DNA from: an uncultured virus (IMG/VR IMGVR_UViG_3300034073_003178) | Lineage: Duplodnaviria; Heunggongvirae; Uroviricota; Caudoviricetes | Strand: one strand, 5' to 3' | DNA length: 64,000 nt | Virus record (IMG/VR): IMGVR_UViG_3300034073_003178 | Coordinates: 1-64,000 of that record | Shown here: in pieces, positions 3,782 through 19,893 of the stretch | How positions within the stretch are numbered: the first letter of the stretch is position 1 | Layout: every line of letters starts with the position of its first letter | The notes under the pieces: model-generated | Seen by the model: only the letters and a program-made list of their open reading frames with translations | Database searches by the model: none | Told to the model about the DNA's origin: nothing | Position numbers and translations under genes: made by a program

Positions 3782-3803
3782 TGACCTCGTTGTGTATGGA
3801 AAT

Positions 3804-3935: not shown

Positions 3936-4352
3936 GTTCTTATCTTTTAGATACTCCTGGTAAAGAATCTTTTCATTCCAATAAGCAAAGATCTCATGAG
4001 GTTGTTGCCAATACTCAAGATCTTCAATACATTCTCCTTTAAAGTATCTTTTAGAAGATTTGATTCTAAGTTCACCAGTAACAAATTGCAGAACATGATA
4101 CAGTTCATGAATCAAAGTTCTTACATAGGTTTTCTTATCCATATGAGTATGGAGTTCAATTAGAAAACATCGGGGATTATAGGTTTCTCCAATTATGTCA
4201 CACCAACCAAGAGCTTTTTCTCGTTTGAGACCACGATGAACAATCTCAAGGTCAAGTTTATACCGAGCAAGATGCTTAGATACAAACCAACAAACTACAT
4301 CTTCACATAGTTTCTTGGAATATCCATATCCAGTGGTTTCTAGAAGAATCAT
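3921..4352 (-). CDS. Putative zinc metallopeptidase-like protein (HExxH)
   Basis: TLIHELYHVLQ motif followed by a downstream PHEIFA glutamate. Confidence 0.7.
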   Translation of the reverse strand: MILLETTGYGYSKKLCEDVVCWFVSKHLARYKLDLEIVHRGLKREKALGWCDIIGETYNPRCFLIELHTHMDKKTYVRTLIHELYHVLQFVTGELRIKSSKRYFKGECIEDLEYWQQPHEIFAYWNEKILYQEYLKDKNLTHP

Positions 4353-4453
4353 TGAAAGTAATTCAAAACGACATTGAAAAGACGAACACCCCAGTTCATA
4401 AGAACCATGAAAGATGCCATGAAAACCAGTTTATCAAGCGTTGAATAGGACAT
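4349..4453 (-). CDS. Small membrane protein (34 aa)
   Basis: Manual translation MSYSTLDKLVFMASFMVLMNWGVRLFNVVLNYFQ. It follows a promoter and its stop overlaps the next ATG (ATGA). Confidence 0.65.
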   Translation of the reverse strand: MSYSTLDKLVFMASFMVLMNWGVRLFNVVLNYFQ

Positions 4454-4476
4454 GAATGCTCTTAGGGTACTCAGAT

Positions 4477-4533
4477 ACTATAAAACCCTACAAGGGGTCT
4501 TGTAGGGTCTTGTGGACGGTTCTCAGAGTGTCC
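4477..4533 (-). promoter_or_regulatory. Early-type promoter: palindromic GGACA..CGTCC box plus TATAGT
   Basis: Minus strand GGACACTCTGAGAACCGTCCAC (4512-4533), then 29 nt, then TATAGT (4477-4482). Same spacing as the copy at 3804-3860. Confidence 0.7.
4481..4508 (-). terminator. Probable intrinsic terminator of the glycan island
   Basis: Perfect 10-bp stem ACCCTACAAG-ACCC-CTTGTAGGGT followed by TTTA, about 30 nt after the stop of 4536..7631. Confidence 0.5.
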
Positions 4534-4535
4534 TA

Positions 4536-7500
4536 TCAGTATCCATCTTCTGCCCAACACTCTCCATATCCATTCTTCTGATCATCATATGGATAGTTTA
4601 ACCAACCTTTTCTTGTCCACTCAAGATCAATTCCATATCTTGGGAAAGATTTAAATGCTCTTTTTATAACATTTTGACTGATCTGATGTGAGTGATTCCA
4701 TTCTGGACAATTATCATAGAGATATTTTTCTGGATCAAGAATCATGAGATTAATTCTCTCATCAAATTTACTACAATATCTTGAACCAATGTAAGTTTCA
4801 GTCCTTGCGAAGAATGGGTAATACTTATGAAGATTTTCTTTTGTAACCTTAATCTTATCAATAAGACCACCAAACTCAAGAGGAATATCAAACAATTCTT
4901 TCAGATCGCAAGTTCTTCCCCAGAAGATGTGATCTCTTGGATGGAACAGTAGATTTGGATAAATTCCTGCTACGAAAATTTGATCCTCATATTCTCTACG
5001 ATTCATCATGTAATCATACATCTTACACATGCTTTCAATAGAATATTTTTGATCAGTTCTCATTTTTGCAGAGTATTCTGTCTTTACGAAATTTAATCCG
5101 CTAAGAGAACCTACAATTTGTAGATTTCTATTATCAGTTCCTGGAGATGAAGGATATTCATTTCTTATGTATTTTACTCTAGTTGAATGATAAGAATTTG
5201 TCCTATCCATATTCCAACAAGAAACAATTACATTATTCACAAAAGGAATTTTCAAGTATTGATCAATAATTTCATTTGTATATTCATCATATCTTCCTTG
5301 AAGAACAATGTCCATCTTTCCAATTTCAGGAACAATTGTAAATGGTATATTATATTCTTCTTGAATTTTTTCTATAGAATCTAAACAATTTATTTCTTGA
5401 AGTTCTGAAGGTTGATTTTTATTTGAATCTAAAAGATCGGGAAAATATTTTTGAAGATTATCAAGAACTGAATTTTTATATTCTTCTGGCATTTGATAAT
5501 TTTCATATAAATCCTTAAGAAGTTTTCCAGACTCTTCATTTTTTCCCCACCACCATCCAGAAACTGCTTTTTCAAATAATAATCCAAAAGTTCCTGGGTA
5601 TCCTACATTAGTTCTTAATGGAGGAGAATTTAGATCTGCAAAATTTAATGCATTATCAGCATAAATGTAGCAGTCTTGCCAAGACTGTCTTTTTTCCGAA
5701 AAATTTGAAAGTAAAAAATATGCTTCTGGGCGAGTGGGAAGCAGACACAGCGCCTGCTGAAGTAGTCCTTTAGAAGATACATCTCTTGTTCCTTGCCTTT
5801 CATAGCAAATTGATCCGTGAATCAGTGCTTCATAGGCAAGAAGATCATCTGCTCTTTCTGCACATCTCAGAAAATAAGAAAGTGCTGGTGCTGTATGCCC
5901 TTCTCTTTCATACCAAAGACCAAGAGCAAAATTATACTCTGGATTTTCAGTATCTGCTGAGTATTGTGTAAGAAGATTTTCTAGTTCATTCTTTACTGTC
6001 ATTTCTTGCAATCCAAATAATTGATTTAATGAGGTATGTTGTGTTTTCCACCAATTAGATACGAAATCATAACTTTCCTTATGATATTCTTTATGACCAC
6101 CTTCAATTTGATTGAAGGTAGTTGATAAATGATTGTTTTCTACAAACAATTCTACTACATAAACTTTTCCAAGACCATAAAATAAAACATTTTCTGGCAT
6201 CGGGTAGAAATTTGTGCCAGGAATAGTCAAATCATATTCATCATCAAAAACATGCCTTTCTAAAACTTTTCTGGCATAATCCCGAGTCATTATATATGCA
6301 GTGACAGACCAATCATACATGGATCTTTCACGAAAATGAACTGATTCAAATGATGGACGAACAGTTGTTAACTGAACACATTCAGTATCATCTGGTAGTT
6401 TTTCAATAAATTGATTCCAAGTGAAATTCCAGTTTTCTACAGTCTCTAAACTTAGATCATCTTCACAAAAGAAAGCATAATCATCATCTTTCTTTTCATA
6501 CCATTTTTGAATTGCTTTTAGATGAGAAATTGTACATCCAATTGTTCCTCCGTCTAAAATATGTAACATTTCTCCTTTAACTTTATCATTACATTCAGCA
6601 AATCTTTTTGAAAGTATTGGAGTGATGTCATCTATTCCATACCTAGAGAATTGTTCATGTAATGATTTTTGCCTTTCCACACTTTCTTCTAAACTTACAT
6701 AATAAGAATATGGAAAATTTTCAAGATTATTTTTTATAGTATCTTCAATCATTGTACCTATAAAGTTTCTTTTCTTATCGCTTTTAATTATACTCCATTT
6801 AGTGCTATTATTTACATAATAATCTTTTACTTCACCAACCAATTCTTTATTAGCATTTGTATGAGATATTGCCATCACATAATCAGTTTGCCATTCAAGT
6901 TCAATGTTTTCATCAAACATTCCTGTTAGATTATTTTTAATAAGAACTCTATTTTCTTCGCTGTATCCTTCAAAGTTTTCTACTCTTTTTTGATCTTGGT
7001 GTGGTATATGAATTAAGAAATAGTCACAACTTATTTTTTTATGAGTTAGACCAAAAAGTTCCAATCTTTGATATAATTCATCATCTTCATATGAATAATG
7101 TTTTTTTAAATTTTCATTGTATCCACCAACCTTTATGAAATTTTCTTTTGTAATATACAAAAGACCAGTTAGATATTTGAAATATGGACTGTAAGAATTA
7201 CAATATTCTCTAATCTCATCAATATGCATTGTTGTAAAATCTAAAACATATGCATCTTGCTCTTCTGAATAGACTTCTGGACTTTGATAACTATTTTTTC
7301 CAGAAACAAAAGAATTATCATCTATAGTATACTTTTTAAAAAAATTATAATATGGATTGAGAATATAATCTGAATCAACTTTTAAGATATACTTATTTTT
7401 TGCAATACTTACTGCAAGATTTAAAGGTTGAGGTTGATTGAAATATTGTTGATTTTCTACTGTAATTACATTAATTCTTTCATCTAATTCTGTTAAATGA

Positions 7501-7631
7501 GAAATAGATTCATCAGATGACCAATCAACAATAATAATTTCAGATATTTCTTTAAAGGATAACCAAGAACTTAAGGATACGCGAAGTGCTTCATAGCGAT
7601 TTTTGCAAGCACAAATTAAAGATACACTCAT
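4536..7631 (-). CDS. Multidomain glycosyltransferase fusion: GT-A (GT2/GT7-like) + GT25-like + TPR + WavE-like
   Basis: N-terminal IIIVDWSS, KVDSD and GGYNE..YSYEDDE; central GCTISHLKAI, FCEDD and AYIMTR; TPR-like RPEAYFLL; C-terminal IVLQG..VIVSCW..NRNLQI..KMRTDQ..FHPRDHIFWG. Confidence 0.8.
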   Translation of the reverse strand: MSVSLICACKNRYEALRVSLSSWLSFKEISEIIIVDWSSDESISHLTELDERINVITVENQQYFNQPQPLNLAVSIAKNKYILKVDSDYILNPYYNFFKKYTIDDNSFVSGKNSYQSPEVYSEEQDAYVLDFTTMHIDEIREYCNSYSPYFKYLTGLLYITKENFIKVGGYNENLKKHYSYEDDELYQRLELFGLTHKKISCDYFLIHIPHQDQKRVENFEGYSEENRVLIKNNLTGMFDENIELEWQTDYVMAISHTNANKELVGEVKDYYVNNSTKWSIIKSDKKRNFIGTMIEDTIKNNLENFPYSYYVSLEESVERQKSLHEQFSRYGIDDITPILSKRFAECNDKVKGEMLHILDGGTIGCTISHLKAIQKWYEKKDDDYAFFCEDDLSLETVENWNFTWNQFIEKLPDDTECVQLTTVRPSFESVHFRERSMYDWSVTAYIMTRDYARKVLERHVFDDEYDLTIPGTNFYPMPENVLFYGLGKVYVVELFVENNHLSTTFNQIEGGHKEYHKESYDFVSNWWKTQHTSLNQLFGLQEMTVKNELENLLTQYSADTENPEYNFALGLWYEREGHTAPALSYFLRCAERADDLLAYEALIHGSICYERQGTRDVSSKGLLQQALCLLPTRPEAYFLLSNFSEKRQSWQDCYIYADNALNFADLNSPPLRTNVGYPGTFGLLFEKAVSGWWWGKNEESGKLLKDLYENYQMPEEYKNSVLDNLQKYFPDLLDSNKNQPSELQEINCLDSIEKIQEEYNIPFTIVPEIGKMDIVLQGRYDEYTNEIIDQYLKIPFVNNVIVSCWNMDRTNSYHSTRVKYIRNEYPSSPGTDNRNLQIVGSLSGLNFVKTEYSAKMRTDQKYSIESMCKMYDYMMNRREYEDQIFVAGIYPNLLFHPRDHIFWGRTCDLKELFDIPLEFGGLIDKIKVTKENLHKYYPFFARTETYIGSRYCSKFDERINLMILDPEKYLYDNCPEWNHSHQISQNVIKRAFKSFPRYGIDLEWTRKGWLNYPYDDQKNGYGECWAEDGY

Positions 7632-7646
7632 AATGAATAATCTATT

Positions 7647-8276
7647 TTATTTTTTCCAGGCAAAACCAATTCCCCAATCTTCAGGGCAGTTGACCTCAAT
7701 ATTCCACTTTGTTTTATCTAAAGAATTTATAAAATTATAAGGCCCAGGATGGCATGAAACATCATGAAATCCTACTATGCCATCATCAGAAAGAAGGTTT
7801 GTATATTCCCAATCTCTTAGTACTTGGTTGATACTATGCCATCCATCAATAAAAATAAAATCAAATTTTTCTACACCCAATTCTTTAAACTTTAAAACAT
7901 TTTCTTGATAGTTTGAACTATCATTTACTATGGTGTAAATATTTTTTTCCGAATCATTTAAAAATGATCTATCTTCAACATCTAGACCAATGTAAAAAGT
8001 TTCTTGTTTTTTACTGTTGAAGAATACATATGCAAACGATTCCTCAGCATTTCTTCCTATACCAATTTCAAGAATAGATTTTGCATTTTCTCTAACTTTC
8101 ATAAACTGTTGCAAAAGAGCAAATCTATTGCAATAGGTAACTTCTTTTGGATAGATTGCTTCACCATATTCATTAAAAGTATGACCATATCCAAGAGGAT
8201 GTGGAACACCACCATCAGCATCATCAAAATCAGTTCCAGTTCTAATATCTCTAATTAAATCAGTTTCCCACTTCAT
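7647..8276 (-). CDS. Class I SAM-dependent methyltransferase (Methyltransf_24-like)
   Basis: ILEIGIG, FDFIFIDGWHS and GIVGFHD motifs. Confidence 0.8.
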   Translation of the reverse strand: MKWETDLIRDIRTGTDFDDADGGVPHPLGYGHTFNEYGEAIYPKEVTYCNRFALLQQFMKVRENAKSILEIGIGRNAEESFAYVFFNSKKQETFYIGLDVEDRSFLNDSEKNIYTIVNDSSNYQENVLKFKELGVEKFDFIFIDGWHSINQVLRDWEYTNLLSDDGIVGFHDVSCHPGPYNFINSLDKTKWNIEVNCPEDWGIGFAWKK

Positions 8277-8279
8277 TGT

Positions 8280-8750
8280 TCAACTCCAATTGTTCTTATA
8301 AAATAATGGTTTGTCTGTGCAGATGCCATAACTTCTTTCTATATATTCTGGATTTGAAAGGTATAAATCAGTATTTTCTGGTAAAACAATAACTGATTTA
8401 GAAAAGGGAATTTCCCCCACCAAAACCCATCCAATTCCTTTACTAGTCAAAGTATATTTGTCTACATCATGCCAAAAATAATGAAAATTTATTGGAGCAC
8501 TTGATAATTTTTCAAGTGCTTCTCTATTTTTACAATGAATCCAAAGTACATCTTTATACTTTCTTAACCATTCCATAGTGATAAAATATTGGGGACGATC
8601 ATGCCCAAGATAGCATTGATCATCCCCAATAACCCATAAATCAATTTCAACATCAAATCCTTCAGAGATTGCTTCTTCAATATACTCAGTACTATTTTCT
8701 CTGAGTGGATTTGGTTCAGTTAAATTTCCCCGATGTGCAATAATTTTCAT
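8280..8750 (-). CDS. Short glycerophosphodiester phosphodiesterase (GDPD)/PI-PLC-like protein
   Basis: IIAHRGN, ENS, DVEIDLW, LGHD, WIHCKN and GICTD motifs. Confidence 0.8.
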   Translation of the reverse strand: MKIIAHRGNLTEPNPLRENSTEYIEEAISEGFDVEIDLWVIGDDQCYLGHDRPQYFITMEWLRKYKDVLWIHCKNREALEKLSSAPINFHYFWHDVDKYTLTSKGIGWVLVGEIPFSKSVIVLPENTDLYLSNPEYIERSYGICTDKPLFYKNNWS

Positions 8751-8758
8751 TTAAATAA

Positions 8759-9526
8759 TCATCCAAATAAAACTCTTCTAAAATCTATGTTATTATTAAT
8801 TCTAACAACAAAATTAAATCTTTTTAAAGGGACATTTGTAACCTTAAGATATTCACTAAGCATGATTTCTGGTTGAAATGGGCAATCATGCAATTTTAGT
8901 AAATTATTATACAGGTTTGAATATATGTCCATTGAAAAAGAAGATCCTAATGCGAATTGATCATTTATTCCTCCACACCAATCCTCACCATCTGGAATGT
9001 AAAGAGCATCTGTCATTTCACTGACATCTAATGTTTTACCCTCAAAATCACTATCAAATCTCATTCTTATTACACAATCAAAAAGCATATTGTTTTCAGT
9101 TTCATATTGTCTTTTTAATTCATTCGCTTTAAATATAGAATAATGCATACTTAATGGCCCAATATCTTTTCTTGGGTATATTAATTCATGTGTATCTACA
9201 TTTTTATTGTACCATTTCCTAGTTATTAAAGATTTTGGAGGTAATCTATTGTAGATTAGTTCAAAATCACTCTTTTTTGTATCATAATTTTCTATCAATA
9301 TTTTTTCATAATCAAATAAATCTATAATATTTGGAGATGTTTCTATGATTTTATCTAATTCTTTATGTTGGTATCCAAAAACAGTATTTAAGAATCCATC
9401 AAAATTTTTTATTTTCCAAGTATGAATAAAAATTTTGATATCATCATTTGGTATAATATTTTCAATACTTTTAACTGCTATATGGGGATATCGCACACCA
9501 CCAGAAATACATAATGCTATTTTCAT
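8759..9526 (-). CDS. Putative glycosyltransferase-like protein, paralog of 13132..13845
   Basis: KIALCISG, IFIHTW, SMHYSI, VIRMRFD, INDQFA and PE motifs; glycan-cluster context. Confidence 0.6.
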   Translation of the reverse strand: MKIALCISGGVRYPHIAVKSIENIIPNDDIKIFIHTWKIKNFDGFLNTVFGYQHKELDKIIETSPNIIDLFDYEKILIENYDTKKSDFELIYNRLPPKSLITRKWYNKNVDTHELIYPRKDIGPLSMHYSIFKANELKRQYETENNMLFDCVIRMRFDSDFEGKTLDVSEMTDALYIPDGEDWCGGINDQFALGSSFSMDIYSNLYNNLLKLHDCPFQPEIMLSEYLKVTNVPLKRFNFVVRINNNIDFRRVLFG

Positions 9527-9596
9527 ATAATGCTTCTATAAAAAGGTTTTCTCATAACATTTAGTTCAGTTAAATTTCTCCAGATGTATAAGAATT

Positions 9597-10802
9597 TTAA
9601 TATTCATTTCTAGTTAATATTAATATCCAACTATTTGGATAAATTCCATTTCCCATGATATGATGAGTATTAATTTTTTTTATTGAATCATAAAACTTAT
9701 TATGCCCATATAGATTGATTTCTTCCATATAAGATTCAAAAGAATCCTCAGAAAGTAAACCTTCAATTATCAATATTCCACCGGGATTTAGATACTTATA
9801 AGCATTTCTAATAATTTTAATTCTAGACCAAAATGTATGATCAGAATCATCTATTAAGATATCAAATTTGGAATTGGATTTTTCAAATGCTTCACAAATT
9901 GATACTTCACTAGTTGCATCCATATAATCATATGAAGTATCTGGAAGATTATCTTCTTTTGCGCTTTGAAGTAAACTACTATCATTATCCCATCCATAAA
10001 GATGAGCATTAGAGAAGTATTCTCTCCAAATTTTCATTGATGAGTTTTTGTATATTCCAATTTCTCCAAAATTAATCTGTTTGTATTTGAATGGAGAAAA
10101 TAGAAGATTATAAAATGATGTGCAATAATTGGAATCTTTTTTAAATGAAAGTGTAGCGATGTATAGATTTACATTTTCCTGATAAAAACCTTGATGATGA
10201 GGTTGCTCGTATTCTTTTCTATACCTACTTGTTAACTTTAGTCCTGAAGATTCTACGATTTTAATTATATTTTCAGGTGAAATAAATTCACCAGGATCTG
10301 GAGATAAGGTGACATCAGTGGAAATAAGTAATCTTCCGTTTGGTTTTAAGACTCTATGAACTTCATCTGCAACATTTTTCCATCCCCAATTTTCAATACC
10401 ATCTCCCCATGTAGGATTGAAACAGTGTACTGAGCAAGAATCAATTATAACATCTACACTCTCCGGTTCCATTTGCTTTAGTTCATATAAAGCATCACCA
10501 AGAACCATTTTTGCTAATCCTTTTGGACACCAATGATCAACACTCATAAGATCTATTCCAGTCACATCATTGCCCCAACTTGCAATGATGTGAGGAATTA
10601 CTCCATTTGCAGATCCTAAGTCAATTACGGTTAAATTATTTTTTCCGATTGACTTGAATTCTTGTAATAATGACACCCATTTGACAATGGCTGCATCCTT
10701 GTCCCAAAATTCTCCCCGAAAACCTTTTTCAGGCCATTTTTCTTTTTTTAGTATATCCTTACAGATAGAAACATCCTTAGATGTAATTAACTTATTGTAC
10801 AT
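9597..10802 (-). CDS. Tandem two-domain class I SAM methyltransferase
   Basis: Domain 1: VIDLGSANG and VHRVLKPNG. Domain 2: FGEIGI, YGWD, FDILIDDSDH and LNPGGILIIE. Confidence 0.8.
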   Translation of the reverse strand: MYNKLITSKDVSICKDILKKEKWPEKGFRGEFWDKDAAIVKWVSLLQEFKSIGKNNLTVIDLGSANGVIPHIIASWGNDVTGIDLMSVDHWCPKGLAKMVLGDALYELKQMEPESVDVIIDSCSVHCFNPTWGDGIENWGWKNVADEVHRVLKPNGRLLISTDVTLSPDPGEFISPENIIKIVESSGLKLTSRYRKEYEQPHHQGFYQENVNLYIATLSFKKDSNYCTSFYNLLFSPFKYKQINFGEIGIYKNSSMKIWREYFSNAHLYGWDNDSSLLQSAKEDNLPDTSYDYMDATSEVSICEAFEKSNSKFDILIDDSDHTFWSRIKIIRNAYKYLNPGGILIIEGLLSEDSFESYMEEINLYGHNKFYDSIKKINTHHIMGNGIYPNSWILILTRNEY

Positions 10803-10813
10803 TTTTTAATAGA

Positions 10814-12052
10814 TCAAAAATCAAGAACCCATTCAGGAAGAGAACCGCCGCCAGTTTCATATCCCCACTTATCTATGGCATCACGAAACTCTTTACCTGG
10901 AGTCTTATCAATTGCCTGACGCATTGCTAAAGCACCCGATAAAGTGCCTCCTGGATGACCATGAACCGCTCCACCACAATTAGCAAGAAAGTCAGTGCCA
11001 AACTTTTCTGCTGTAGTATTTACAATACCAGGATGCATACCACAACTTAGTGCGGGAAGCACATTTCTCTTATGTAGTGTTGCCATTGTCTGACGAAGTT
11101 CATCTTCATCATCACTTAAGTATCCACCCCACATTCCTGCATGAATTGTATCTACACCGCAAAGTCCTGCAAGATCACAGAGAACATCCCAATCAATACC
11201 AAATGCATGTCTCTTATCGGTAAGAATCTTATCACCACTCTTTTGATAATGAACAAATAAAGGTAGATCCATTTTTCTTACAGAATTATAAACTCCTAGA
11301 CCACTCCAGAAGTTAATATGAATACCATTACCACCATTTTCTGCAACAAACTTAGCACGATCAAGAATTGTATGATGATCTCCATTAATACAGAAGCAAT
11401 AGATCACTCCCCTTCCACAATTATTGACAATGTTGGAAATCAATTCTACACGATCCTCAAGACGGCAAAATGAAGGATTGGCAAGAATCTCATCTTCTTT
11501 AATGAAATCAACTCCACCATCCAGAAGTTCTTTGACCATTTCTGATAGAGTTTGTGGAGAAATGCCTGTTTTTGGTTTTACGATTGCCCCAGAAAGTGGT
11601 TTGTCATAGCGATTAACAAACTTACGAATTCCATCAATACCATTCTTAGGCCCTAGGAATTGTGCTTCCACATCGGCAGGAAATTCAAGTTTACGAAGAC
11701 GGCAAACTTTAAATACATCAATATCTAATTGACCTCCCATCAATTGACAAAGAAGATGTGAGATACCATCACCTTCCCAATCAGTATTTACTTTAGGAAA
11801 TCCAATTTTAACTTCCCCTTCAGTCAACTGAGAAAGTTCATTTTCATCAGCATAGATGACACAAGATGAAAGTTCAAAAAGTTCATCATTTTCCCAGCGA
11901 TTACGAACTTTTGGATTCCCTACACTTTGTCCAATTGCGAGATTCCAAGCCGCATCTTTTAATGTGCCAATATTTGAATATGATTCAATATAATAAGTTG
12001 CAATTACACAACGATTTTTTTCATATTCAGTTAGTTCTCTAAAGAATTTCAT
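10814..12052 (-). CDS. RuBisCO-like protein (form IV RLP)
   Basis: RuBisCO large-subunit signatures: GPKNGIDGIR, GAIVKPKTG, GGVDFIKEDEIL, GVDTIHAG, LPALSCG and GGAVHGHPGG..GALAMRQA. Confidence 0.92.
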   Translation of the reverse strand: MKFFRELTEYEKNRCVIATYYIESYSNIGTLKDAAWNLAIGQSVGNPKVRNRWENDELFELSSCVIYADENELSQLTEGEVKIGFPKVNTDWEGDGISHLLCQLMGGQLDIDVFKVCRLRKLEFPADVEAQFLGPKNGIDGIRKFVNRYDKPLSGAIVKPKTGISPQTLSEMVKELLDGGVDFIKEDEILANPSFCRLEDRVELISNIVNNCGRGVIYCFCINGDHHTILDRAKFVAENGGNGIHINFWSGLGVYNSVRKMDLPLFVHYQKSGDKILTDKRHAFGIDWDVLCDLAGLCGVDTIHAGMWGGYLSDDEDELRQTMATLHKRNVLPALSCGMHPGIVNTTAEKFGTDFLANCGGAVHGHPGGTLSGALAMRQAIDKTPGKEFRDAIDKWGYETGGGSLPEWVLDF

Positions 12053-12375
12053 GATTCAACCTCAAATTTATCAGATGGAATAGACGGAATTTTAACTACC
12101 ACTAAGGTACAATCTTCAAGAAAAATTGGATCAGCAACTTCTCCTTTTTCAAATACAAATACATCCCCACTATTTAACTCATTTCCCTGAATGATCATTT
12201 TACCGGAAATAAGAACATTATATTCTATACTTTCCTTATGATAGTGAGGAGACCAATATTCATCCTTTTTATGTTGTAGAATACCAACCTCAAAATCTTT
12301 GGTTTTAAACAGAGATGGTTCAAAATCTCCAATGAACCATCCACGAACATAATCAGTAATTTTTGTTATATTCAT
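12049..12375 (-). CDS. Cupin-fold protein
   Basis: GWFIGDFEPS, PHYHKESIEYNVLISG and GDVFVFEKGE (cupin metal motifs). ATGA-coupled to the RLP. Confidence 0.8.
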   Translation of the reverse strand: MNITKITDYVRGWFIGDFEPSLFKTKDFEVGILQHKKDEYWSPHYHKESIEYNVLISGKMIIQGNELNSGDVFVFEKGEVADPIFLEDCTLVVVKIPSIPSDKFEVES

Positions 12376-13087
12376 ATTTTTTTAAATAATAATTTAAATC
12401 TTCTGGGACACCGACAGGATTATGTTGCCAAGTTGGGATTTGATGTATTCCAACTTTTCGGCCAAAATGTTTAATCATATAATTGTATGTTGGTCCAACA
12501 TAGTATTCGCCATTAGGTGCTGTATCTTCAAACTGAATCATTTCTTGAGCACTTTCAACAAAGTAAAATCCTTTTCTCCAATAATGAATTCCGTTAAGAG
12601 ATATGTTGCTAATGACCTCCTTCTCTTTCACCTCCAATACTAACCCATCTCTATCAATTTTGCAATAGCTGTTTTTGGGCGTGTCCGTTTCATAGGTGAC
12701 TATGACTCCATCATACTTATAGTATCTTGCCGTTTGCAGAAATAATCCAGAATCCCACCACATTATTTGATCACAATTCGCAATAACCAATTCAGTATTA
12801 TTATTAATTTCAGTTTCAAATAATAATGCACTACATGCTGGTCCTTTTGTAGTCTCATCAACTGTGATTATCTTACAATCTGGAACTATTTTTTTAAGCA
12901 ATTCGTATATTTGAAAATAAAATGAATCTTGCCGAATTACAAAATGATATTTACCATCAAGATTCATAGATTCAATTGCACATTGAATCATTGGTTTACC
13001 TTCAATTTCAATCAGTGGTTTAGGTAGATGGTATTTGTCTCTTGGAAATCTAGTTCCTTCTCCAGCCATCGGTATGACAATGTTCAT
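12353..13087 (-). CDS. Sugar-phosphate nucleotidyltransferase (NTP_transferase family)
   Basis: MNIVIPMAGEGTRF..PKPLI, TKGPACS, IANCDQ, EKEVIS, NGEYYV and GVPEDL motifs. Confidence 0.88.
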   Translation of the reverse strand: MNIVIPMAGEGTRFPRDKYHLPKPLIEIEGKPMIQCAIESMNLDGKYHFVIRQDSFYFQIYELLKKIVPDCKIITVDETTKGPACSALLFETEINNNTELVIANCDQIMWWDSGLFLQTARYYKYDGVIVTYETDTPKNSYCKIDRDGLVLEVKEKEVISNISLNGIHYWRKGFYFVESAQEMIQFEDTAPNGEYYVGPTYNYMIKHFGRKVGIHQIPTWQHNPVGVPEDLNYYLKKYEYNKNY

Positions 13088-13131
13088 AAAACCTCATTTA
13101 TTTTGTGTAAAATTTAATATCTAATAAAGTC

Positions 13132-13845
13132 TCATCTATTATTAATAACAACTCTAAAATCAAATCTATTTACTGCTATGTTGTACATTTCAAAGTATTT
13201 GCGAAGCATAGTTTCTGGATGATATTGAACATCTCTAATTTTATCAATATGATTATATAAATTAGAATACAAATTCATTGCATCTGAAGATCCTACAGCA
13301 AACTGATCATTAATGCCACCACACCAATCTTCTCCTCTTGGAATATTGATTCCATTTGGAATGTTGTTTAGATGTAATTCATTTCCTCCAAAGTTACTAT
13401 CAAATCTCATTCTAATCACTTTATCAAATATCATATTATTTTCTTTTTCATAATCACATTTTAATTGATTGCTTTTATAAATTGAATAGTGCATACTAAT
13501 TGGTCCAACATCATGCCTTGGAACTATACATGCCCCTTGCTGAAATGGGAGAAGATTTATAGAATTATGAATTGCTTCAAATTCAGAATGCTTAGATTCA
13601 TCATAATCTTCTATTAAAAGTTTTTCGTAATTGTAATGTTCTAAAAAATTAAATTGAGTTTCAAAAATGTTATCTGGTTCTTTACTTTGTAATCCAAAAA
13701 TAGTTTTTAAAAAACTTTCTGTATCTACAATTTTCCAAGTATGAATAAAGATTTTGATACAATCATTAGGAACTATTTTTTTAATACTTTCTAGACCTAT
13801 ATGAGGATATCTTATATTTCCTGAAATGCAAATTGCTACTTTCAT
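13132..13845 (-). CDS. Putative glycosyltransferase-like protein, paralog of 8759..9526
   Basis: Shares KVAICISG, IFIHTWKI, GPxSMHYSI, VIRMRFDS and GEDWCGGINDQFA with 8759..9526. Confidence 0.6.
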   Translation of the reverse strand: MKVAICISGNIRYPHIGLESIKKIVPNDCIKIFIHTWKIVDTESFLKTIFGLQSKEPDNIFETQFNFLEHYNYEKLLIEDYDESKHSEFEAIHNSINLLPFQQGACIVPRHDVGPISMHYSIYKSNQLKCDYEKENNMIFDKVIRMRFDSNFGGNELHLNNIPNGINIPRGEDWCGGINDQFAVGSSDAMNLYSNLYNHIDKIRDVQYHPETMLRKYFEMYNIAVNRFDFRVVINNR

Positions 13846-14834
13846 TTAAAAATAAAATCTCTTATAAAATTTTTAGATGCTTTAACCAAATATGCGGCAT
13901 TATCTTGATATCCAAAGGTTATTAGATAATCATTTTTATATTCTGCCATTCCTACAGCAAATTCAATTTCTGCATTTATAAAAGAAAATTGTTTAGACAC
14001 TTTTACGATATTCCAATCTTTGTCCCATACAACAAAACGATGACGATAAACTCCATCTTTTCTACCTGCAGGACTTTTTGTAAGATATGTTTCATGAGTT
14101 AAGCAAAATCTATAATCATCTCCAAGAGGAATAATCTGAGAACCACCTCTTAAATCAATAGTTCCAAAATCTTTCCAATCTTTTTTTATAATACTGGTAG
14201 TAGTGTTACTTTCAATGTCATATTTTACGATTTCAGTTCCATTTGTCCATTTTACATAATGATATGGCATGTCAAGAATAGGCATCCAATTCTTATTGCA
14301 ATATTCTTCGTCTGGAGGTGGAGCAGGAATGCGATGTTGATTAATTTCTTTTACACCATTCTCCGTAATTTCTAGTTCGGAAAGTTCCATTCTTCCCGTT
14401 CCAATTGTATCTAAATCTCTTCTCACTCCAGTTATGTAAAGTTTGTCGTTCCAACGGACAATACGACAGTCTTCTAATCCAACAAAATCCCACAACTCTT
14501 TATCTGGGAACTTTGAAGTATCAATATAATGATATTTTTTAATTCTCATATCATCATCCATTTCGCACATAATATTCCATGTGCGGAGATGCATATCATT
14601 TTCTGGATGAATATAAACTAAAGGTCCCCAAGGGTGTTCAAATTTTTTCTTTTCTGAATGATATAGTGTATAATTGATATTTCTGAGATTTACTAAAATC
14701 TTATCTCCATCAATGTAAACCGAAGGATTTGTAAGTGCCGGCCCTTTTAGTTCATTTGATGGAATAATTAAAGGATAAATGCTTCCTCCATTTTGGAGAG
14801 CAATTTTGACGAAGTTCATTTCATCTGCTGTCAT
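13842..14834 (-). CDS. Beta-propeller glycoside hydrolase/phosphorylase-like protein (GH130-like)
   Basis: NPSV, GLEDCRI, KNWMP, LRGGSQ, YRHRF, IEFAVG and FGYQD motifs. Confidence 0.65.
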   Translation of the reverse strand: MTADEMNFVKIALQNGGSIYPLIIPSNELKGPALTNPSVYIDGDKILVNLRNINYTLYHSEKKKFEHPWGPLVYIHPENDMHLRTWNIMCEMDDDMRIKKYHYIDTSKFPDKELWDFVGLEDCRIVRWNDKLYITGVRRDLDTIGTGRMELSELEITENGVKEINQHRIPAPPPDEEYCNKNWMPILDMPYHYVKWTNGTEIVKYDIESNTTTSIIKKDWKDFGTIDLRGGSQIIPLGDDYRFCLTHETYLTKSPAGRKDGVYRHRFVVWDKDWNIVKVSKQFSFINAEIEFAVGMAEYKNDYLITFGYQDNAAYLVKASKNFIRDFIFK

Positions 14835-14856
14835 AAAAAATATGAATAATTTTAGA

Positions 14857-14878
14857 TATTTATTTTCCTATTATAGCA
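14857..14878 (-). promoter_or_regulatory. Tandem promoter elements for the glycan island: extended -10 plus T4-like late motif
   Basis: TGCTATAAT (14870-14878) and ATAAATA (14857-14863) upstream of the ATG at 14834. Confidence 0.55.
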
Positions 14879-14883
14879 CGGTT

Positions 14884-15618
14884 TTAAAATAATGTAGAAA
14901 ATGAGTATCCAGCAGCAGGAGGCCTCGGGCCGCCAAAAGATGCAACAATCAAAGAATGACGAGCATTAATCGCAGAAGTCGTAGCGTCAAAACCACCAGT
15001 AGGATCTCCTAACACATTAGTTCTAGCAACGGCAATAGAACCGTCAGCACCTGAAGTAGATGTTTGCTCACCAATTTCAGTCATCGCAGTTGGACCAGTT
15101 GTATAATCCTGAGAACTCCAAGTAACTTCCTGACCACCAATACATAACATAATTTCCAAATAATCATCAGGAGTATCAGTTAAAAAACTCCTAGTATATC
15201 CACCAGTAGTCACATTTCCCGATGCACCAGTCGCAAGAGTGTTCACAGAACTTCCTGCTACAGGATTTATAAGGTCTTGTCCCGTGATTCTCACTACATA
15301 ACCAAAAGCAAGGTCGGGAAATTGTTCTCCAGTTACTGCGCCAAATATAAAACTTGGGTTTGTTGCACCCCTTTTAATCCACGCCATTAAACCAGAACCA
15401 ATTGCCTGGTTGTTTGTATTCTCATTTCCAGTTACAAGGGTCCTTTCTATAATCTGCCAATCAGCAGGAAGTGAAGGTGTTGTTGCTCCACGAAATGATA
15501 TACAAGCAACTAAAAGGTCATCAGTTGTTAATCCAGCAGGAGCATTAAGTGTTAGAGAACCATTAGTTGTGGTTGTCTTTGTTGCTACTGTAGATATTGC
15601 TTGATATGCGATTGCCAT
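14884..15618 (-). CDS. Putative virion or tail-fibre accessory protein (beta-rich)
   Basis: T/G/A/S-rich 244-aa ORF at the end of the fibre cluster. Confidence 0.6.
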   Translation of the reverse strand: MAIAYQAISTVATKTTTTNGSLTLNAPAGLTTDDLLVACISFRGATTPSLPADWQIIERTLVTGNENTNNQAIGSGLMAWIKRGATNPSFIFGAVTGEQFPDLAFGYVVRITGQDLINPVAGSSVNTLATGASGNVTTGGYTRSFLTDTPDDYLEIMLCIGGQEVTWSSQDYTTGPTAMTEIGEQTSTSGADGSIAVARTNVLGDPTGGFDATTSAINARHSLIVASFGGPRPPAAGYSFSTLF

Positions 15619-15622
15619 AATA

Positions 15623-17011
15623 TTATCTTGGTACTAAACGAAGTGCTACCGTAACTCTTGTAACTGTGGTTGCACTATCAACTTGAAATTCTAACACGTC
15701 TCTAGCAGAAAGTGTAGTCGTCCAAGAAGATAAAGTAAGGTCTTCTGCTTTTTGTGCTGAAGATAGTGTTGGAAGTTCTGTTCCTGCGATAGAAGCAGTT
15801 GTTGGGAAGTTTGTATAAGTTGCTCTGTTTACATCAACCACAATACTTCCTGATTGGTCGGCAATAATAGTCCAACCCGTAACTGTATAATCACCATCTA
15901 ATACAATATGTCCCTTAATACCTGTAGTAATTGCAGAACCACCACCATCAATTACAAAATTCAGAGTTCTTGTATTAGAAACAAATGAGGCATTTTGCGA
16001 AGCATCAAATTGTAAAACTTCATCAGCGGCACCATTTGCAGCAGGAAGAGTGATAGTGTAGTTTGATGTGATTGATGCCGGAGCAGTAATGGCAGCAAAG
16101 TTAGAATTATCTGCATCCATAAAATGTAATGGGGCATCATCAAGAATTCTTACAAATCCAGTTCCGTTTGGATTTAAATCAATATTTCCATTTGTGTTTG
16201 TAGATGAAACCTCGTTACCATTGATGTTAATGTTATCAACCTGTAAAGAACCTAAAGTTCCTACAGAAGTCAAGGAAGAATTGACAACTCCACTTCCTAA
16301 AGTTGTTGCAGTTAAAACTGGAGTACCATTAATTTCATAATCCCCTCCAGTTGCTACATTAACTCCACCCGTAACGGAAAGAATATCAGTAGTCTTATTA
16401 TAAGTTAATCCAGCATCACCACCAAATACTCCAGCATCATTAAACTGAACTTGAGTATCAGAACCACCAGGATTTCCACTAGTTCCTGAATTATCATCTG
16501 CCCAAGTTAAAGAAGCAGTATTTGCCGTTGGTGTTGGGGAAGAAGCAATTTTAAGAACCTGTCCTGCTGTTCCAACTGTATCGGGAAGAATATAAGAACG
16601 ATTGCCAGCAACGGTAGAAGATGCCGCAAACCCAACATAGTTAGAATTATCACTATCTCCAAATCTTAATGCTGCGGCAGAAGAAACATAAAGATTAGTT
16701 CCGTCAGTTGTTACGGCAGCACCAGCAAAAGCACCACCGTTATTATACTGAATTTGATTTGTAGAACCACCAGGAGAAGCAGAAACTGCTGCCCAACTTG
16801 TGGTTCCTGAACCATCAGTTTTTAAATAATAATCAGGTGTTCCATCATCTGCTGGTAGTGTGAATGTATAAGCAGTTCCTACAGTATCAGGAACCTTAAT
16901 ATCAATATGTGAATTCTCATCAGCATCTAATAATCTTATTTTTGCTCCTGTGTTTCCTACACCAAGAACTTCTGGATTTTTAAGTATTTGACCTCTTGAT
17001 AATTCCGCCAT
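15623..17011 (-). CDS. Tail fibre protein
   Basis: Repeated fibre motifs (FTLPADDG..LKTDGSG..W, PGGSxxQxQxN..F.G, VVNSSLTSVGTL). The probable start MAELS at 17011 has a TAATG overlap. Confidence 0.75.
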   Translation of the reverse strand: MAELSRGQILKNPEVLGVGNTGAKIRLLDADENSHIDIKVPDTVGTAYTFTLPADDGTPDYYLKTDGSGTTSWAAVSASPGGSTNQIQYNNGGAFAGAAVTTDGTNLYVSSAAALRFGDSDNSNYVGFAASSTVAGNRSYILPDTVGTAGQVLKIASSPTPTANTASLTWADDNSGTSGNPGGSDTQVQFNDAGVFGGDAGLTYNKTTDILSVTGGVNVATGGDYEINGTPVLTATTLGSGVVNSSLTSVGTLGSLQVDNININGNEVSSTNTNGNIDLNPNGTGFVRILDDAPLHFMDADNSNFAAITAPASITSNYTITLPAANGAADEVLQFDASQNASFVSNTRTLNFVIDGGGSAITTGIKGHIVLDGDYTVTGWTIIADQSGSIVVDVNRATYTNFPTTASIAGTELPTLSSAQKAEDLTLSSWTTTLSARDVLEFQVDSATTVTRVTVALRLVPR

Positions 17012-19893
17012 TATGCTTGTGCCTCCGTCCATCTAAGAACTAAATCAACTGATGCAGACTGTGAGTTATTGTTAGTTACATAAAAAACAATAACTTCAGG
17101 TCCATCTGGATAAGTATTATTTCCTCCAATAACTGAGTTTTGTACTTCTTTAATTGCACTTAAATCATATACTGTAGTTCCAGAAGAAGACAAATACCTA
17201 AACAGAACTTCCCCATCAACTGGTGCAGTTCCTCCAAGAATTGTTCCTCCTGAAGTTGCATATTGTGCAAAAGATGGTTGGAATACATTTGAAACACCTA
17301 CAGTTGTGGTGTTTGCATTCAACCAAGTTGCAGCACCTACATTACTTGGATTGAGAATAGCAGAAATTTCAAGGTTTCTAGCAGAGTTATTATTTAATCC
17401 AAGTTCTCTAAGAGTAATTTGAGAACGATTGATAACTTCTCTTTCTCCAAGAAGTCCTGGAATTGTATTTGAAACTGATGGTGCTGGACGGAAAAGGAGA
17501 ATTGCGGTAGAAGAGTTGCCAGCAACAGAGACATTCGTTCTTGATAGGTTAAATAGATATCCACTATCTTGGTCAAAACCACCATCCATAATGACCGCAG
17601 AACCCCAGTGTGAGATAGTAGGAGCACAAGTATTATTGAGTAGAATAACACTTGAACCTGCTGGATGATTATAGGAATTTGTTGAACCACTAAAAGTTCT
17701 GTTTGCCCCAGAAAGATATTGAATATAAGATGTTGCTGTTGTAACTCCAGTAAGAGTGTTACCCGATTTACCAGTATAAGACATCAGTTCATGATAAATT
17801 GTTCCTGATTGATTACTTGTTACCATTACAATATTAGAAGAAATTCCAACTGGAGGAACTGGGAATCTTGAAGCATCTGATAAAGTTAAAGATGTGGTTG
17901 TTATTCCTGTTGCCACTGCTAACTTATCAATTGCAGAAGTATTTGAAACCTCATAACGACAAGGGAGGTTTCCACTTCTCATGTATGCTTCATCATTAAT
18001 ATTGTTGTTCTTCATACGATGAGCAGTAATAAATTCACCAGCAGGCCCACGAAGCATAAAGTCAATAAATCCAGCACCATACCAAGAATATTGAATTCCA
18101 AGCATCTGCATTTTTGCTAAGTCAACATGATAACCTGATGGTGTATCAGTCCCATCAATACGATCTATATTGAATTGACTTTGTGGAACTCTGAGTTCTC
18201 TTACAATCGTTGGTTTAACTCCTGATGCAGTTGCTCCACGATTTTCTGGTGAAATTGAAAGTGAAGTATTACTTGTAATCGTTGAGACTAAGTATGTTTG
18301 CCCGCGAATTGTAATCAGGTCTCCTACCTTAAGTTGCTCTGTAAATCTTGTGTTTGTTCCTGTGACTGTTTGAGAACCATTAGTGACTGCAACAGTTCCC
18401 GCAAGTTGGAAAGTAGAAGACCTCCTTACAACGGCAAGTTCTTGTCCATCATACTCCCAGAACATTCCGTTTGAGTCATCAAAAAGCCCACAACGAATTG
18501 ATGCACCTACCCATTTAATTACAGCAATTCTTGGTTGCGCTTCTAATACTGCAGTGGCATCCGTTGGCGCTGGACTTCCCGCTGCTACAGTAAATGTAAA
18601 TTCATTTGTAATTGATTTTACCTCATACTCTCCATTATAATTTACCGAAGTAATACCATAAAGTCTTACAGTTGCACCTCTTTGAAGACCATGAGGAACC
18701 TGTGTTGTTACACTAATATCTGGAGCAGAATAAGTAACTGTTTGAATATCAAAAACTGGATTAAAAAGTGTTCCTGTAGAGAATAAGACTCCTTTACCAG
18801 ACTGATAACGGAAATATCTTTTTGACTGCCTCTTTGCTTCTAGTCCATGAATTGGTAGTGATGGTCCCATCAAAACTCCACCATCAAATGGACGATGAAT
18901 AAAGAAACTATCATTAATCGCATAAACAGAAACATTAGTTGTTGTAATAGAACCATTTGTTACTGTTTGCCCAGCATCATAAGAAATCTGTGTTCCATTT
19001 ATAACTGTATTGACGAAAAATCTACCTTCATGTGCTTGCGTTCCTGCAGTTGTATCGACGATATAAATTGGAGAACCAGGAACAAGACCATGAGGACTTC
19101 CAAAGGTAACAGTAACAATTCCTCCTGCACCATTACCACTCATGGTGGATAAATCCATCGGTGTTCCTGCATAAACACCACCTTCCTTAACAACTGTGTA
19201 AGGATTACTTAGACTTCCAGTAGCAATACTACCTTTTGCTAGATAATCAAAAGTTGTGGTTCCGTTGGTTGCAATTACAACAAACAAACCATCAGCAAGA
19301 GTATTCGTAGTTCCAGTTACGGCAAATGGAGTTCCAACAGGAAGTGCTTGTCCACTTTCCACAGTAACACGAACTGTTGAATAAGTTGCAGCACCTAGAG
19401 AAGAAACATCAGTAACTGTAAGTGCAGGACCAGGAAGTTCAAAGAATGATGGAATATTACGATTGAGACCTAATGACTGCCATTTAGTATTCTGTAATCC
19501 ATATTCAAAGTCAGCATCAATCAGTGATTGGGGTTGTGCAATTCTTATTCTTTCAATCGCATCAATGGCAAACTCGTAAGGACGAACTTTTAATCCGTGC
19601 TGTTCATCATCAATAAAAATTGAAAGTTCATCACTATCAGACATTCCAGTTGTATCATATTCTAATATGATATCAGTATATCCATCAGTAGAATTTTCAA
19701 AATCAGTATCAGTTGTTGGTAGAGGATAATAAGTCGCAGTAAATCCTTTACCTGGGTCTAGTTGACTTGCAATTACAATTCCATCAGTTGCATTCACAAT
19801 CAGTAAGATATCATTAACAGTATGTCTATCTGAAATTCTTATCTTCTTTTCAGAAGCATAAAAACGATATCTTTCTTCTCTTCTTCTTGCCAT
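17011..19893 (-). CDS. Virion structural protein (tail or baseplate associated)
   Basis: 960 aa; QSLIDADFEYG, RQSKRYFRYQSGKG and YSWYGAG motifs recognised from cyanophage structural proteins. Confidence 0.7.
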   Translation of the reverse strand: MARRREERYRFYASEKKIRISDRHTVNDILLIVNATDGIVIASQLDPGKGFTATYYPLPTTDTDFENSTDGYTDIILEYDTTGMSDSDELSIFIDDEQHGLKVRPYEFAIDAIERIRIAQPQSLIDADFEYGLQNTKWQSLGLNRNIPSFFELPGPALTVTDVSSLGAATYSTVRVTVESGQALPVGTPFAVTGTTNTLADGLFVVIATNGTTTFDYLAKGSIATGSLSNPYTVVKEGGVYAGTPMDLSTMSGNGAGGIVTVTFGSPHGLVPGSPIYIVDTTAGTQAHEGRFFVNTVINGTQISYDAGQTVTNGSITTTNVSVYAINDSFFIHRPFDGGVLMGPSLPIHGLEAKRQSKRYFRYQSGKGVLFSTGTLFNPVFDIQTVTYSAPDISVTTQVPHGLQRGATVRLYGITSVNYNGEYEVKSITNEFTFTVAAGSPAPTDATAVLEAQPRIAVIKWVGASIRCGLFDDSNGMFWEYDGQELAVVRRSSTFQLAGTVAVTNGSQTVTGTNTRFTEQLKVGDLITIRGQTYLVSTITSNTSLSISPENRGATASGVKPTIVRELRVPQSQFNIDRIDGTDTPSGYHVDLAKMQMLGIQYSWYGAGFIDFMLRGPAGEFITAHRMKNNNINDEAYMRSGNLPCRYEVSNTSAIDKLAVATGITTTSLTLSDASRFPVPPVGISSNIVMVTSNQSGTIYHELMSYTGKSGNTLTGVTTATSYIQYLSGANRTFSGSTNSYNHPAGSSVILLNNTCAPTISHWGSAVIMDGGFDQDSGYLFNLSRTNVSVAGNSSTAILLFRPAPSVSNTIPGLLGEREVINRSQITLRELGLNNNSARNLEISAILNPSNVGAATWLNANTTTVGVSNVFQPSFAQYATSGGTILGGTAPVDGEVLFRYLSSSGTTVYDLSAIKEVQNSVIGGNNTYPDGPEVIVFYVTNNNSQSASVDLVLRWTEAQA

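Follow-up and report, generated by a model that had tools for sequence, protein, structure and literature searches.

To our knowledge, every RuBisCO-like protein (RLP) of known function works in salvage or catabolism. MtnW/YkrW, the 2,3-diketo-5-methylthiopentyl-1-phosphate enolase of methionine salvage, belongs to a pathway that also uses a cupin. The DeepYkr RLP of Rhodospirillum rubrum, a 5-methylthioribulose-1-phosphate isomerase, is followed by a small cupin methylsulfurylase and lies upstream of a cytidylyltransferase step; this order resembles that of the genes described here, although it serves isoprenoid and sulphur salvage rather than glycan synthesis. We studied an RLP gene of an uncultured virus, located in the first 64 kb (64,000 nucleotides; hereafter the window) of the IMG/VR record IMGVR_UViG_3300034073_003178, which is linear, 72,347 bases long and 34% complete according to CheckV. 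We propose, with a probability of about 0.6, that the encoded protein is an active non-carboxylating enzyme performing one step of a nucleotide-sugar pathway. The gene is the following.

10814..12052, minus strand: RuBisCO-like protein (RLP), 412 residues, ATG start

The phage RLP gene as such is already in print. Jaffe, Castelle, Dupont & Banfield 2019 (Mol Biol Evol, PMC6389311; bioRxiv 2018) describe, in the portions of text available, a group named 'Form IV-like', with about 80-90 non-redundant members on putative phages as well as members in Beckwithbacteria. The phage sequences come largely from IMG/VR, in some cases from Myoviridae; their key residues depart from those of known form IV proteins, and the function was left open. 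Of seven metagenome identifiers of loci collected here, two, 3300000116 (L022) and 3300005805 (L041), recur in the names of their IV-like phages, so that their group, compared by names and not by sequence, is probably the same clade. The main text available of PMC6389311 makes no mention of a nucleotidyltransferase or of neighbouring genes, and the supplement's text names no nucleotidyltransferase, cupin, pyrophosphorylase or glycosyl genes; its image Figure S1, which gives the context of two curated genomes, may bear on this. The SAR11, Legionella and DPANN carriers of the present clade do not appear in the description available from that paper. New groups of RuBisCO homologues are also reported in an excerpt of the Global Ocean Sampling paper. 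No paper describing an RLP-nucleotidyltransferase cassette was found in the literature searched, subscription journals aside, and as far as that literature goes, the pathway context and the likely biosynthetic role are not in print.

An earlier note on this DNA had called an RLP at 10814..12052, and the minus-strand frame, with its ATG and 412 residues, indeed matches Pfam RuBisCO_large (PF00016) with an E-value of 1.8e-42 and 146 bits against a cut-off of 30.1. In the Protein Data Bank (PDB), 99 distinct RuBisCO and RLP sequences matched at E<=0.001, headed by the form III RuBisCO of Pyrococcus horikoshii (2cwx, 3.3e-39) and followed by the RLPs 4nas and 3nwr and the MtnW enolase 2oej. An AlphaFold model built from a 77-row alignment has a predicted local distance difference test (pLDDT) score of 95.6 and a predicted template modelling (pTM) score of 0.92, with the N-terminal domain and the barrel intact. 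Foldseek ranks form III RuBisCO first for this model (TM-score 0.86, 27% identity, about 420-440 aligned columns), with MtnW (0.83) and other RLPs (0.77-0.78) below it. The open reading frame (ORF) is thus a genuine full-length protein of the RuBisCO superfamily. Its scores on the NCBIfam models lie below the cut-offs for form III RuBisCO (TIGR03326, 194.4 bits, cut-off 497.45), for other bona fide RuBisCOs (NF010002, 106.3 against 489; NF003252, 186.3 against 438), for MtnW (NF007095, 167.6 against 409; TIGR03332, 125.6 against 513.6) and for OiaX (NF042437, 151.1 against 700).

To map the active site, we aligned the RLP by MAFFT to six form III, six MtnW and five OiaX-like rows whose labels came from NCBIfam; the columns were fixed through the form III rows, and the spinach numbering and motif identities are those we take to be standard. 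The residues that the earlier note had listed as kept agree with the alignment: K159/K161 correspond to K175/K177, K185, D187 and E188 to K201, D203 and E204, H304 to H327, S336 to S379, and G360/G361 to G403/G404. The G381 equivalent is likewise retained. K185, D187 and E188, which align to the K-D-D-E of form III, are conserved in at least 90% of the rows of the clade described below. Three replacements had also been read correctly, namely E60 by G41 ('GQSVGNP'), N123 by G107 ('GGQ') and K334 by Y311 ('GGY'). However, the proposed equivalence of H268 with H294 and of Y269 with R295 is two residues off, because form III 'H-A-H-R' aligns to H268-Y269-Q270-K271. The H294 equivalent is Q270 and the R295 equivalent is the basic K271 (K or R in the clade rows shown), while H268 aligns to H292 and is variable in the clade (H/F/M/Y). 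The equivalents of E60, N123, H294 and K334, that is G41, G107, Q270 and Y311, show no variation across the 52 clade rows. They belong to a set of 11 positions that are invariant in all 52 rows yet unlike form III (G41, Q42, N46, P47, G107, H245, N247, Q270, S272, G273 and Y311), and C337 is 98% conserved. Archaeal form III enzymes (Thermococcus kodakarensis 3a12 and P. horikoshii 2cwx) resemble the RLP in the metal triad and the phosphate-site motifs and differ from it at these four positions and in their separate clade, whereas MtnW resembles it in the metal triad and in being non-carboxylating. Judged from its sequence, the protein is form IV in the broad sense, a superfamily member without the carboxylation-essential residues.

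A search of representative proteins returned 1,443 proteins at E<=1e-3 and 89 at E<=1e-30. Among the best 150 matches listed, 109 near-full-length proteins were labelled by NCBIfam; three scored above the form III cut-off and seven above an MtnW cut-off, and an OiaX-like group scored best on the OiaX model, yet below its cut-off. None of the 21 in-clade representatives reached a curated NCBIfam cut-off, and 19 of the 21 were without a match at E<=1e-60. The phylogeny (IQ-TREE quick search, LG+G4, 88 rows) comprised the window RLP, 20 in-clade representatives, the RLP part of the protein P0122, five close relatives, 26 diverse locus proteins, six form III, six MtnW, five OiaX-like and 18 unlabelled rows; all further matches were omitted, and the tree has no labelled DeepYkr reference row. 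The window RLP falls into a 53-row clade with a Shimodaira-Hasegawa-like approximate likelihood ratio test (SH-aLRT) support of 99, separate from the form III, MtnW and OiaX-like groups. The MtnW and OiaX-like clades, each with an SH-aLRT of 100, both exclude it. Within the window clade, viral and SAR11 rows interleave. The tree and the absence of any curated label among the 21 representatives speak for the uncharacterised, non-CO2-fixing clade that the earlier note had envisaged.

The clade is widely distributed. A word-indexed search with the RLP found 2,742 clusters (90% identity) at E<=1e-10, the best of which is 92% identical; others include a complete Candidatus Pelagibacter genome (66%) and a protein assigned by one source to a Crocinitomicaceae metagenome-assembled genome (68%). 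IMG/VR holds 228 stretches that encode relatives. Species-representative genomes, scanned with query-derived patterns, hold at least 39 loci, in SAR11, Verrucomicrobiota, Elusimicrobiota, Azospirillum (including Azospirillum oleiclasticum, L110), three Legionella species, Francisellaceae, Turneriella, Bacteroidota, Balneola and several DPANN archaea. On the other hand, tblastn with the RLP matched none of the 50,697 INPHARED records, and BFVD contains no RuBisCO fold (best TM-score 0.39). The rarity in phages that had been claimed for such genes thus holds for deposited phages but not for metagenomic ones.

Of the 70 pairs formed by the window gene with viral copies, 49 were usable; their ratio of nonsynonymous to synonymous substitution rates (dN/dS) has a median of 0.064 and a maximum of 0.282, figures that are rough because dS, at 0.9-1.6 in the pairs shown, is near saturation. 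Even so, the values plainly point to strong purifying selection. Together with the 11 clade-invariant positions unlike form III, they support the earlier suggestion of an active enzyme, and we consider the RLP very probably an active non-carboxylase. Form III RuBisCO is its nearest relative in both sequence and fold, as would be expected of a bona fide or residual CO2-fixing RuBisCO, or of a decaying, functionless remnant of one. Both ideas are hardly credible: the E60, N123, H294 and K334 equivalents are all replaced, the 194 bits on the form III model compare with a cut-off of 497, and strong purifying selection and clade-invariant new residues speak against decay.

We then investigated the gene neighbourhoods. 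ORFs were called in 119 loci (80 viral and 39 cellular) and compared with the neighbours of the window RLP. Of the 80 viral loci, 75 have a homologue of the window's nucleotidyltransferase no more than 1.5 kb from the RLP, and so do 36 of the 39 cellular ones, 111 of 119 in total. Three of the five viral exceptions have the RLP at a contig edge, one has the gene 2.6 kb off and one (L078) has a cupin only; the three cellular exceptions are all on short or cut contigs. A cupin stands beside the RLP in 66/80 viral and 9/39 cellular loci, and a protein related to glycerophosphodiester phosphodiesterase (mini-GDPD) within 5 kb in 68/80 and 16/39. De-replication at 85% RLP identity leaves 55 loci, among which the nucleotidyltransferase occurs in 50, the mini-GDPD in 29, the cupin in 27, a DUF7796-like protein in 16 and a nucleoside diphosphate (NDP)-sugar epimerase/dehydratase of the short-chain dehydrogenase/reductase (SDR) type in 14. 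P0122, whose RLP is 53% identical, is a natural fusion of an RLP with an NTP_transferase domain; in a scan of viral contigs with P0122, only its nucleotidyltransferase part was matched, at seven loci. In the window, the cassette and the island around it consist of the following genes besides the RLP.

12049..12375, minus strand: small cupin, 108 residues, weak matches to Pfam Cupin_7/Cupin_2, H44 and E51 invariant
12353..13087, minus strand: sugar-phosphate nucleotidyltransferase of the RmlA/GMPP fold, 244 residues
8280..8750, minus strand: mini-GDPD-like phosphodiesterase, 156 residues, no Pfam match
9597..10802, minus strand: protein with two methyltransferase domains, 401 residues, Methyltransf_11 (61-160) and Methyltransf_31 (259-350)
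8759..9526, minus strand: DUF7796-like protein, copy a, 255 residues, Pfam DUF7796 at 1.1e-5, below the cut-off
13132..13845, minus strand: DUF7796-like protein, copy b, 237 residues
7647..8276, minus strand: Methyltransf_24-type methyltransferase, 209 residues, Pfam 5e-6
4536..7631, minus strand: multi-domain glycosyltransferase, 1031 residues, with GT2, GT7C, GT25 and WavE-like parts (Pfam)
13842..14834, minus strand: protein of unknown family at the island's upstream edge, 330 residues, no Pfam match

The end of the cupin gene overlaps the start of the RLP gene by 4 bases and the nucleotidyltransferase gene overlaps the cupin gene by 23. The cupin gene lies between those of the RLP and the nucleotidyltransferase, which are separated by 297 bases. 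Against the PDB, the nucleotidyltransferase profile matches a Vibrio NDP-sugar pyrophosphorylase (4evw) at 5.6e-36 and, more weakly (about 1e-11 to 1e-7), GDP-mannose pyrophosphorylases, RmlA and GlmU. A complex prediction for the RLP and the nucleotidyltransferase scored 0.00 against a mark of 0.32; this is no answer and is not evidence either way. The cupin profile has weak links to YxaG (3.4e-5) and to 113-residue cupins in the PDB. The idea of a methylsulfurylase of the R. rubrum type found no support in this profile search, with no such relative among PDB matches at E<=1. The mini-GDPD has invariant H6-R7, E35-x-D37, H50, H72-x-K74 and D97, and its profile matches just the catalytic N-terminal part of GDPD enzymes in the PDB (2.2e-5); in the ESM Atlas it finds mostly unnamed viral clusters, the nearest named lead being a GDPD (0.86). 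Relatives of the 401-residue methyltransferase, encoded directly downstream of the RLP, occur in 15/80 viral loci, those of the Methyltransf_24-type protein in 32/80 and those of the 330-residue protein in 13/80. The two DUF7796-like copies, 55% identical paralogues, flank the cassette; by BLAST the family is found in 37/80 viral and 0/39 cellular loci, and its profile gave no solved relative or fold lead in the PDB (best E 0.37).

The wider context is consistent from one carrier to the next. The RLP locus of Legionella nautarum contains LicD, that of a Francisellaceae genome Bac_transf, GT2 and GtrA, and that of a Woesearchaeote GT2, a GHMP-kinase/NTP-transferase fusion, FkbM, a full-length GDPD and WavE. 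SAR11 loci carry GT17, GT61, RmlD and DUF4422. The complete Pelagibacter genome carries the cassette next to its rRNA operon, the location of the SAR11 hypervariable envelope island; GT9, a HAD-NTP fusion, a 2-hydroxyacid dehydrogenase and CTP_transf_3 accompany it there. SDR epimerases, a DegT aminotransferase, a C-methyltransferase, GT11 and GT25 recur among the neighbours of RLP loci. The cassette thus sits inside glycan-biosynthesis islands throughout. Ten IMG/VR contigs (L048, L051-L053, L055-L059 and L067) show the gene order of SAR11 (mini-GDPD, nucleotidyltransferase, RLP, without a cupin), and their RLPs are 62-66% identical to that of the window, like those of the Pelagibacter loci L084 and L086; these contigs may come from pelagiphages or be pieces of SAR11 genomes misclassified as viral.

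The function had previously been framed in terms of catabolism or salvage; the conserved context is nucleotide-sugar and glycan biosynthesis instead. A methionine-salvage or methylthioadenosine (MTA)-type RLP, either an MtnW enolase or a Rhodospirillum-type methylthioribulose-1-phosphate isomerase, could be imagined to work with the cupin as dioxygenase or methylsulfurylase and to recycle sulphur in infection. Pairs of RLP and cupin are known from methionine salvage and from the R. rubrum MTA-isoprenoid shunt (PMC5893883, PMC4958253, in the text available). The window nucleotidyltransferase has weak Pfam similarity to IspD/NTP_transf_3, and glycine at the E60 position (G41) is common to the MtnW rows and the window clade. 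We regard this explanation as very unlikely, because the RLP lies outside the MtnW clade (SH-aLRT 100), scores far below both MtnW cut-offs (167.6 and 125.6 against 409 and 513.6) and has G, K/R and H at the N123, R295 and H327 positions where MtnW has K, P and L. Furthermore, the methionine-salvage context of MtnW is not seen at RLP loci: no Mtn-type kinase, isomerase or dehydratase is found among the 22 most recurrent neighbour clusters, so far as annotated. The profile of the nucleotidyltransferase is also far closer to sugar-1-phosphate enzymes (4evw, 5.6e-36) than to IspD (5e-6).

It is similarly improbable, if slightly less so, that the RLP is catabolic, of the apiose/OiaX or tetronate kind, and allows the infected cell to use an unusual sugar acid as an energy source. 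Known catabolic RLPs act on phosphorylated keto-acids, and the 151 bits on the OiaX model reflect a weak similarity; but the cut-off of that model is 700 bits, the OiaX-like group is separate with an SH-aLRT of 100, and the annotated recurrent neighbour clusters contain no transporter, sugar-acid kinase or pathway dehydrogenase, the neighbours being biosynthetic transferases.

Homologues of the nucleotidyltransferase in deposited phages suggest what the pathway might start from. They occur in 20 records, 19 of them Synechococcus phages, at 27-42% identity, and a cupin homologue (46.5% identity) occurs in two phages (three records), Bellamy and SynMITS9220M01. In S-SKS1 the nucleotidyltransferase is fused to DHBP synthase (RibB), in Bellamy to the ribose-5-phosphate isomerase RpiB and in S-CAM9 to a HAD_2 enzyme. 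These three phages resemble the window in their homologous nucleotidyltransferase (32-42% identical) and in the glycosyltransferases nearby, and Bellamy and S-SKS1 also in their DUF7796-like proteins; unlike the window, they have no RLP, and the upstream sugar-phosphate enzyme is RibB, RpiB or the HAD enzyme. Downstream of the Bellamy fusion are a cupin, a DUF7796 protein, a double NTP_transf_3 protein, GT61 and a class II aldolase. In the deposited annotation, the NTP_transferase-RpiB fusion of Bellamy (L122, 158651-168953) is named 'phosphatase' and the fusion of S-SKS1 just 'DHBP synthase', both names masking the nucleotidyltransferase half. Among the best 120 of 261 longer nucleotidyltransferase forms at E<=1e-15, 94 carry HAD_2, 24 are nucleotidyltransferase families alone (about 500 residues) and two carry Methyltransf_24. 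The nucleotidyltransferase is thus repeatedly coupled to enzymes that remodel sugar phosphates, and the RLP looks like another interchangeable upstream module. RpiB and RibB both act on ribose or ribulose-5-phosphate, and RibB works via an Mg2+-bound enediol. Because RpiB or RibB is the fusion partner of this nucleotidyltransferase in cultured cyanophages, the feedstock is, by analogy, probably the pentose-phosphate pool (ribulose-5-phosphate or a close relative, perhaps a bisphosphate).

From the fold, the Mg2+/carbamate site, the lost carboxylation residues, the selection and the near-obligate nucleotidyltransferase pairing, we infer how the pathway runs, from substrate and chemistry through the sequence of steps to the acceptor. 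Mg2+ would be bound via K185, predicted to be carbamylated, D187 and E188, and the RLP would enolise a phosphorylated ketose by abstracting the proton adjacent to its carbonyl, as all characterised members of the superfamily do. As K334, E60, N123 and H294 are missing, the enediol would not be carboxylated, and the outcome would be an isomerisation or a related rearrangement: the enediol would be reprotonated or rearranged to an isomeric sugar phosphate, with H245, Q270, Y311 and C337 as a candidate new acid/base set. The adjacent nucleotidyltransferase would attach a nucleotide to this product, perhaps once the small cupin and/or the mini-GDPD has acted on it. The glycosyltransferases, methyltransferases and DUF7796 proteins of the island would then use the activated sugar to decorate a glycan, most likely of the infected cell's envelope and less likely of the virion or the phage DNA. 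We think it reasonably probable that the RLP and the nucleotidyltransferase work together in making a glycan or a nucleotide sugar, whereas its acting upstream on a pentose-derived ketose phosphate is a tentative proposal.

Several points weigh against this pathway. Residues of the R295/H327 type hold the second phosphate in RuBisCO, and their retention here (K/R271 and H304) hints at a substrate with two anionic ends, which suggests a poor fit with the mono-phosphate needed by an RmlA-type transferase. The RLP might instead act after nucleotide activation. The locus L078 has ample flanks and a cupin, but no nucleotidyltransferase was detected in it. The cupin and the mini-GDPD are missing from most cellular loci and so are not obligate partners, the RLP fusion was seen once among the 150 representatives listed, the dN/dS figures are rough, and the support from gene neighbourhoods is circumstantial. 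The two retained phosphate-site motifs would suit an RLP acting, after activation, on an NDP-linked ketose with its larger anionic group; known RLP substrates, however, are open-chain ketose phosphates. Alternatively, the product might decorate phage DNA or virion proteins rather than the host envelope. T4-like phages glycosylate their DNA, and the 1031-residue transferase matches PHROG 2835, named glucosyltransferase (1.6e-42), but cellular carriers pair the cassette with the lipid-carrier and envelope enzymes Bac_transf, GtrA, GT9 heptosyltransferase and LicD. We consider either variant unlikely, though worth keeping in mind, and continue to favour the nucleotide-sugar step upstream of the nucleotidyltransferase.

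Fusions elsewhere in the superfamily raise other possibilities. P0180, a protein of 583 residues, joins a TIR domain to a full RLP, and its TIR part has matches among defence models of the Thoeris, Argonaute and SAVED types, hinting at a defence or counter-defence system. For the present locus this is highly improbable: P0180 is outside the tree rows and just 30% identical to the window RLP, and PADLOC matched none of the seven RLP, cupin, nucleotidyltransferase, mini-GDPD and DUF7796 proteins, with only a generic methyltransferase-domain match for the 401-residue protein. Two further proteins, P0161 (726 residues) and P0167 (742 residues), fuse an IF-2B-family domain to a form III-type RuBisCO; the domain belongs to the ribose-1,5-bisphosphate isomerase family, and two steps of the archaeal AMP pathway are thus combined in one chain.

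The window belongs to a T4-like myovirus of groundwater or freshwater. PHROGs in the window include tail fibres, a baseplate hub/lysozyme, a tail protein and a helicase, and the tail protein is 32-36% and the helicase 44-48% identical to their T4-like cyanomyovirus counterparts in the records listed; megablast of positions 1-20000 against phages gave no match. The gene psbA was found in one of five related records searched and in one of the three that are at least 90% complete. The record with psbA is 177 kb long and 90% complete, with an RLP 88% identical, and two 100%-complete records are without psbA. With psbA in one record of five and a helicase just 44-48% identical to those of cyanomyoviruses, a cyanophage identity, implied in the earlier note, is plausible but unproven. 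DNA of the window was found in subsurface and soil metagenomes of one study, which is probably the source, and in freshwater metagenomes of two others; there was no marine run among those with a large share of the window, and none of the runs listed was an RNA run.

We checked the contig at read level in four sequencing runs. In run X2, one contig of 6,387 bases spans 7848-14234 with zero differences, the read depth is about 153 over the cassette compared with 81-225 in the flanking bins, and independent freshwater runs contain exact pieces at 11293-11699, inside the RLP gene, and at 11983-12378, across the RLP/cupin junction. Independent IMG/VR contigs repeat the gene order, for example L040, which runs from the 330-residue protein through DUF7796, nucleotidyltransferase, cupin, RLP, mini-GDPD, methyltransferase and large glycosyltransferase to a 143-residue ORF and a helicase. 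The X2 contig, the depth over the cassette and the independent contigs agree, and there is no sign of a chimera, a possibility raised earlier. Contigs from two freshwater runs join position 5572 to 14652, omitting 9,079 bases, at depths of 226 and 181, and a contig from the probable source run joins 6480 to 14128. Such joints may mean related phages that lack or replace the whole island, although weakly so, as the joint flanks are 29-32 letters long.

The glycan island is low in guanine plus cytosine, with fractions of 0.28-0.29 in the 2-kb bins at 6-10 kb and 12-14 kb against 0.30-0.43 in the genome, while the bin with the RLP gene is richer (0.36). A promoter and terminator scan of 4000-17500 was uninformative, with 63 promoter-like signals against 67.5 expected and 4 terminator-like signals against 5.1. 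Between 19900 and 49769, very large tail-fibre-like proteins of 672, 718, 1462, 962, 1037, 1329 and 2171 residues are encoded in a row, several of which match PHROGs annotated as collagen-like minor tail or tail-fibre proteins. Two adjacent proteins of about 1,000 residues at 57891-60974 and 60981-63989 have common PHROG matches (35997 and the endolysin-like 12490) and are apparently tandem paralogues. One further feature line completes the window.

50015-50754, minus strand: four tRNA genes, Thr-TGT, Leu-TAA, Ile-TAT and Leu-CAA

If the clade does work in nucleotide-sugar synthesis, it would represent a new reaction class for the RuBisCO fold and probably a new activated sugar. Our tentative picture is that it is the first biosynthetic use of this fold, in which a ketose of the pentose-phosphate pool would be turned into an undescribed sugar phosphate and then into a new nucleotide sugar, and in which phages, SAR11, Legionella and DPANN archaea may exchange the cassette and thereby rewrite surface glycans and phage receptors. 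The cultured cyanophages S-SKS1, Bellamy and S-CAM9 would be natural variants with RibB, RpiB or a HAD enzyme in place of the RLP. The cassette is common, with 2,742 clusters, and is present in many T4-like phages and in SAR11, which published abstracts rank first in abundance among the heterotrophic bacteria of surface ocean waters. Because it sits in variable surface-glycan islands, which are thought to decide infectivity, it bears on the arms races between phages and their hosts in marine and fresh waters.

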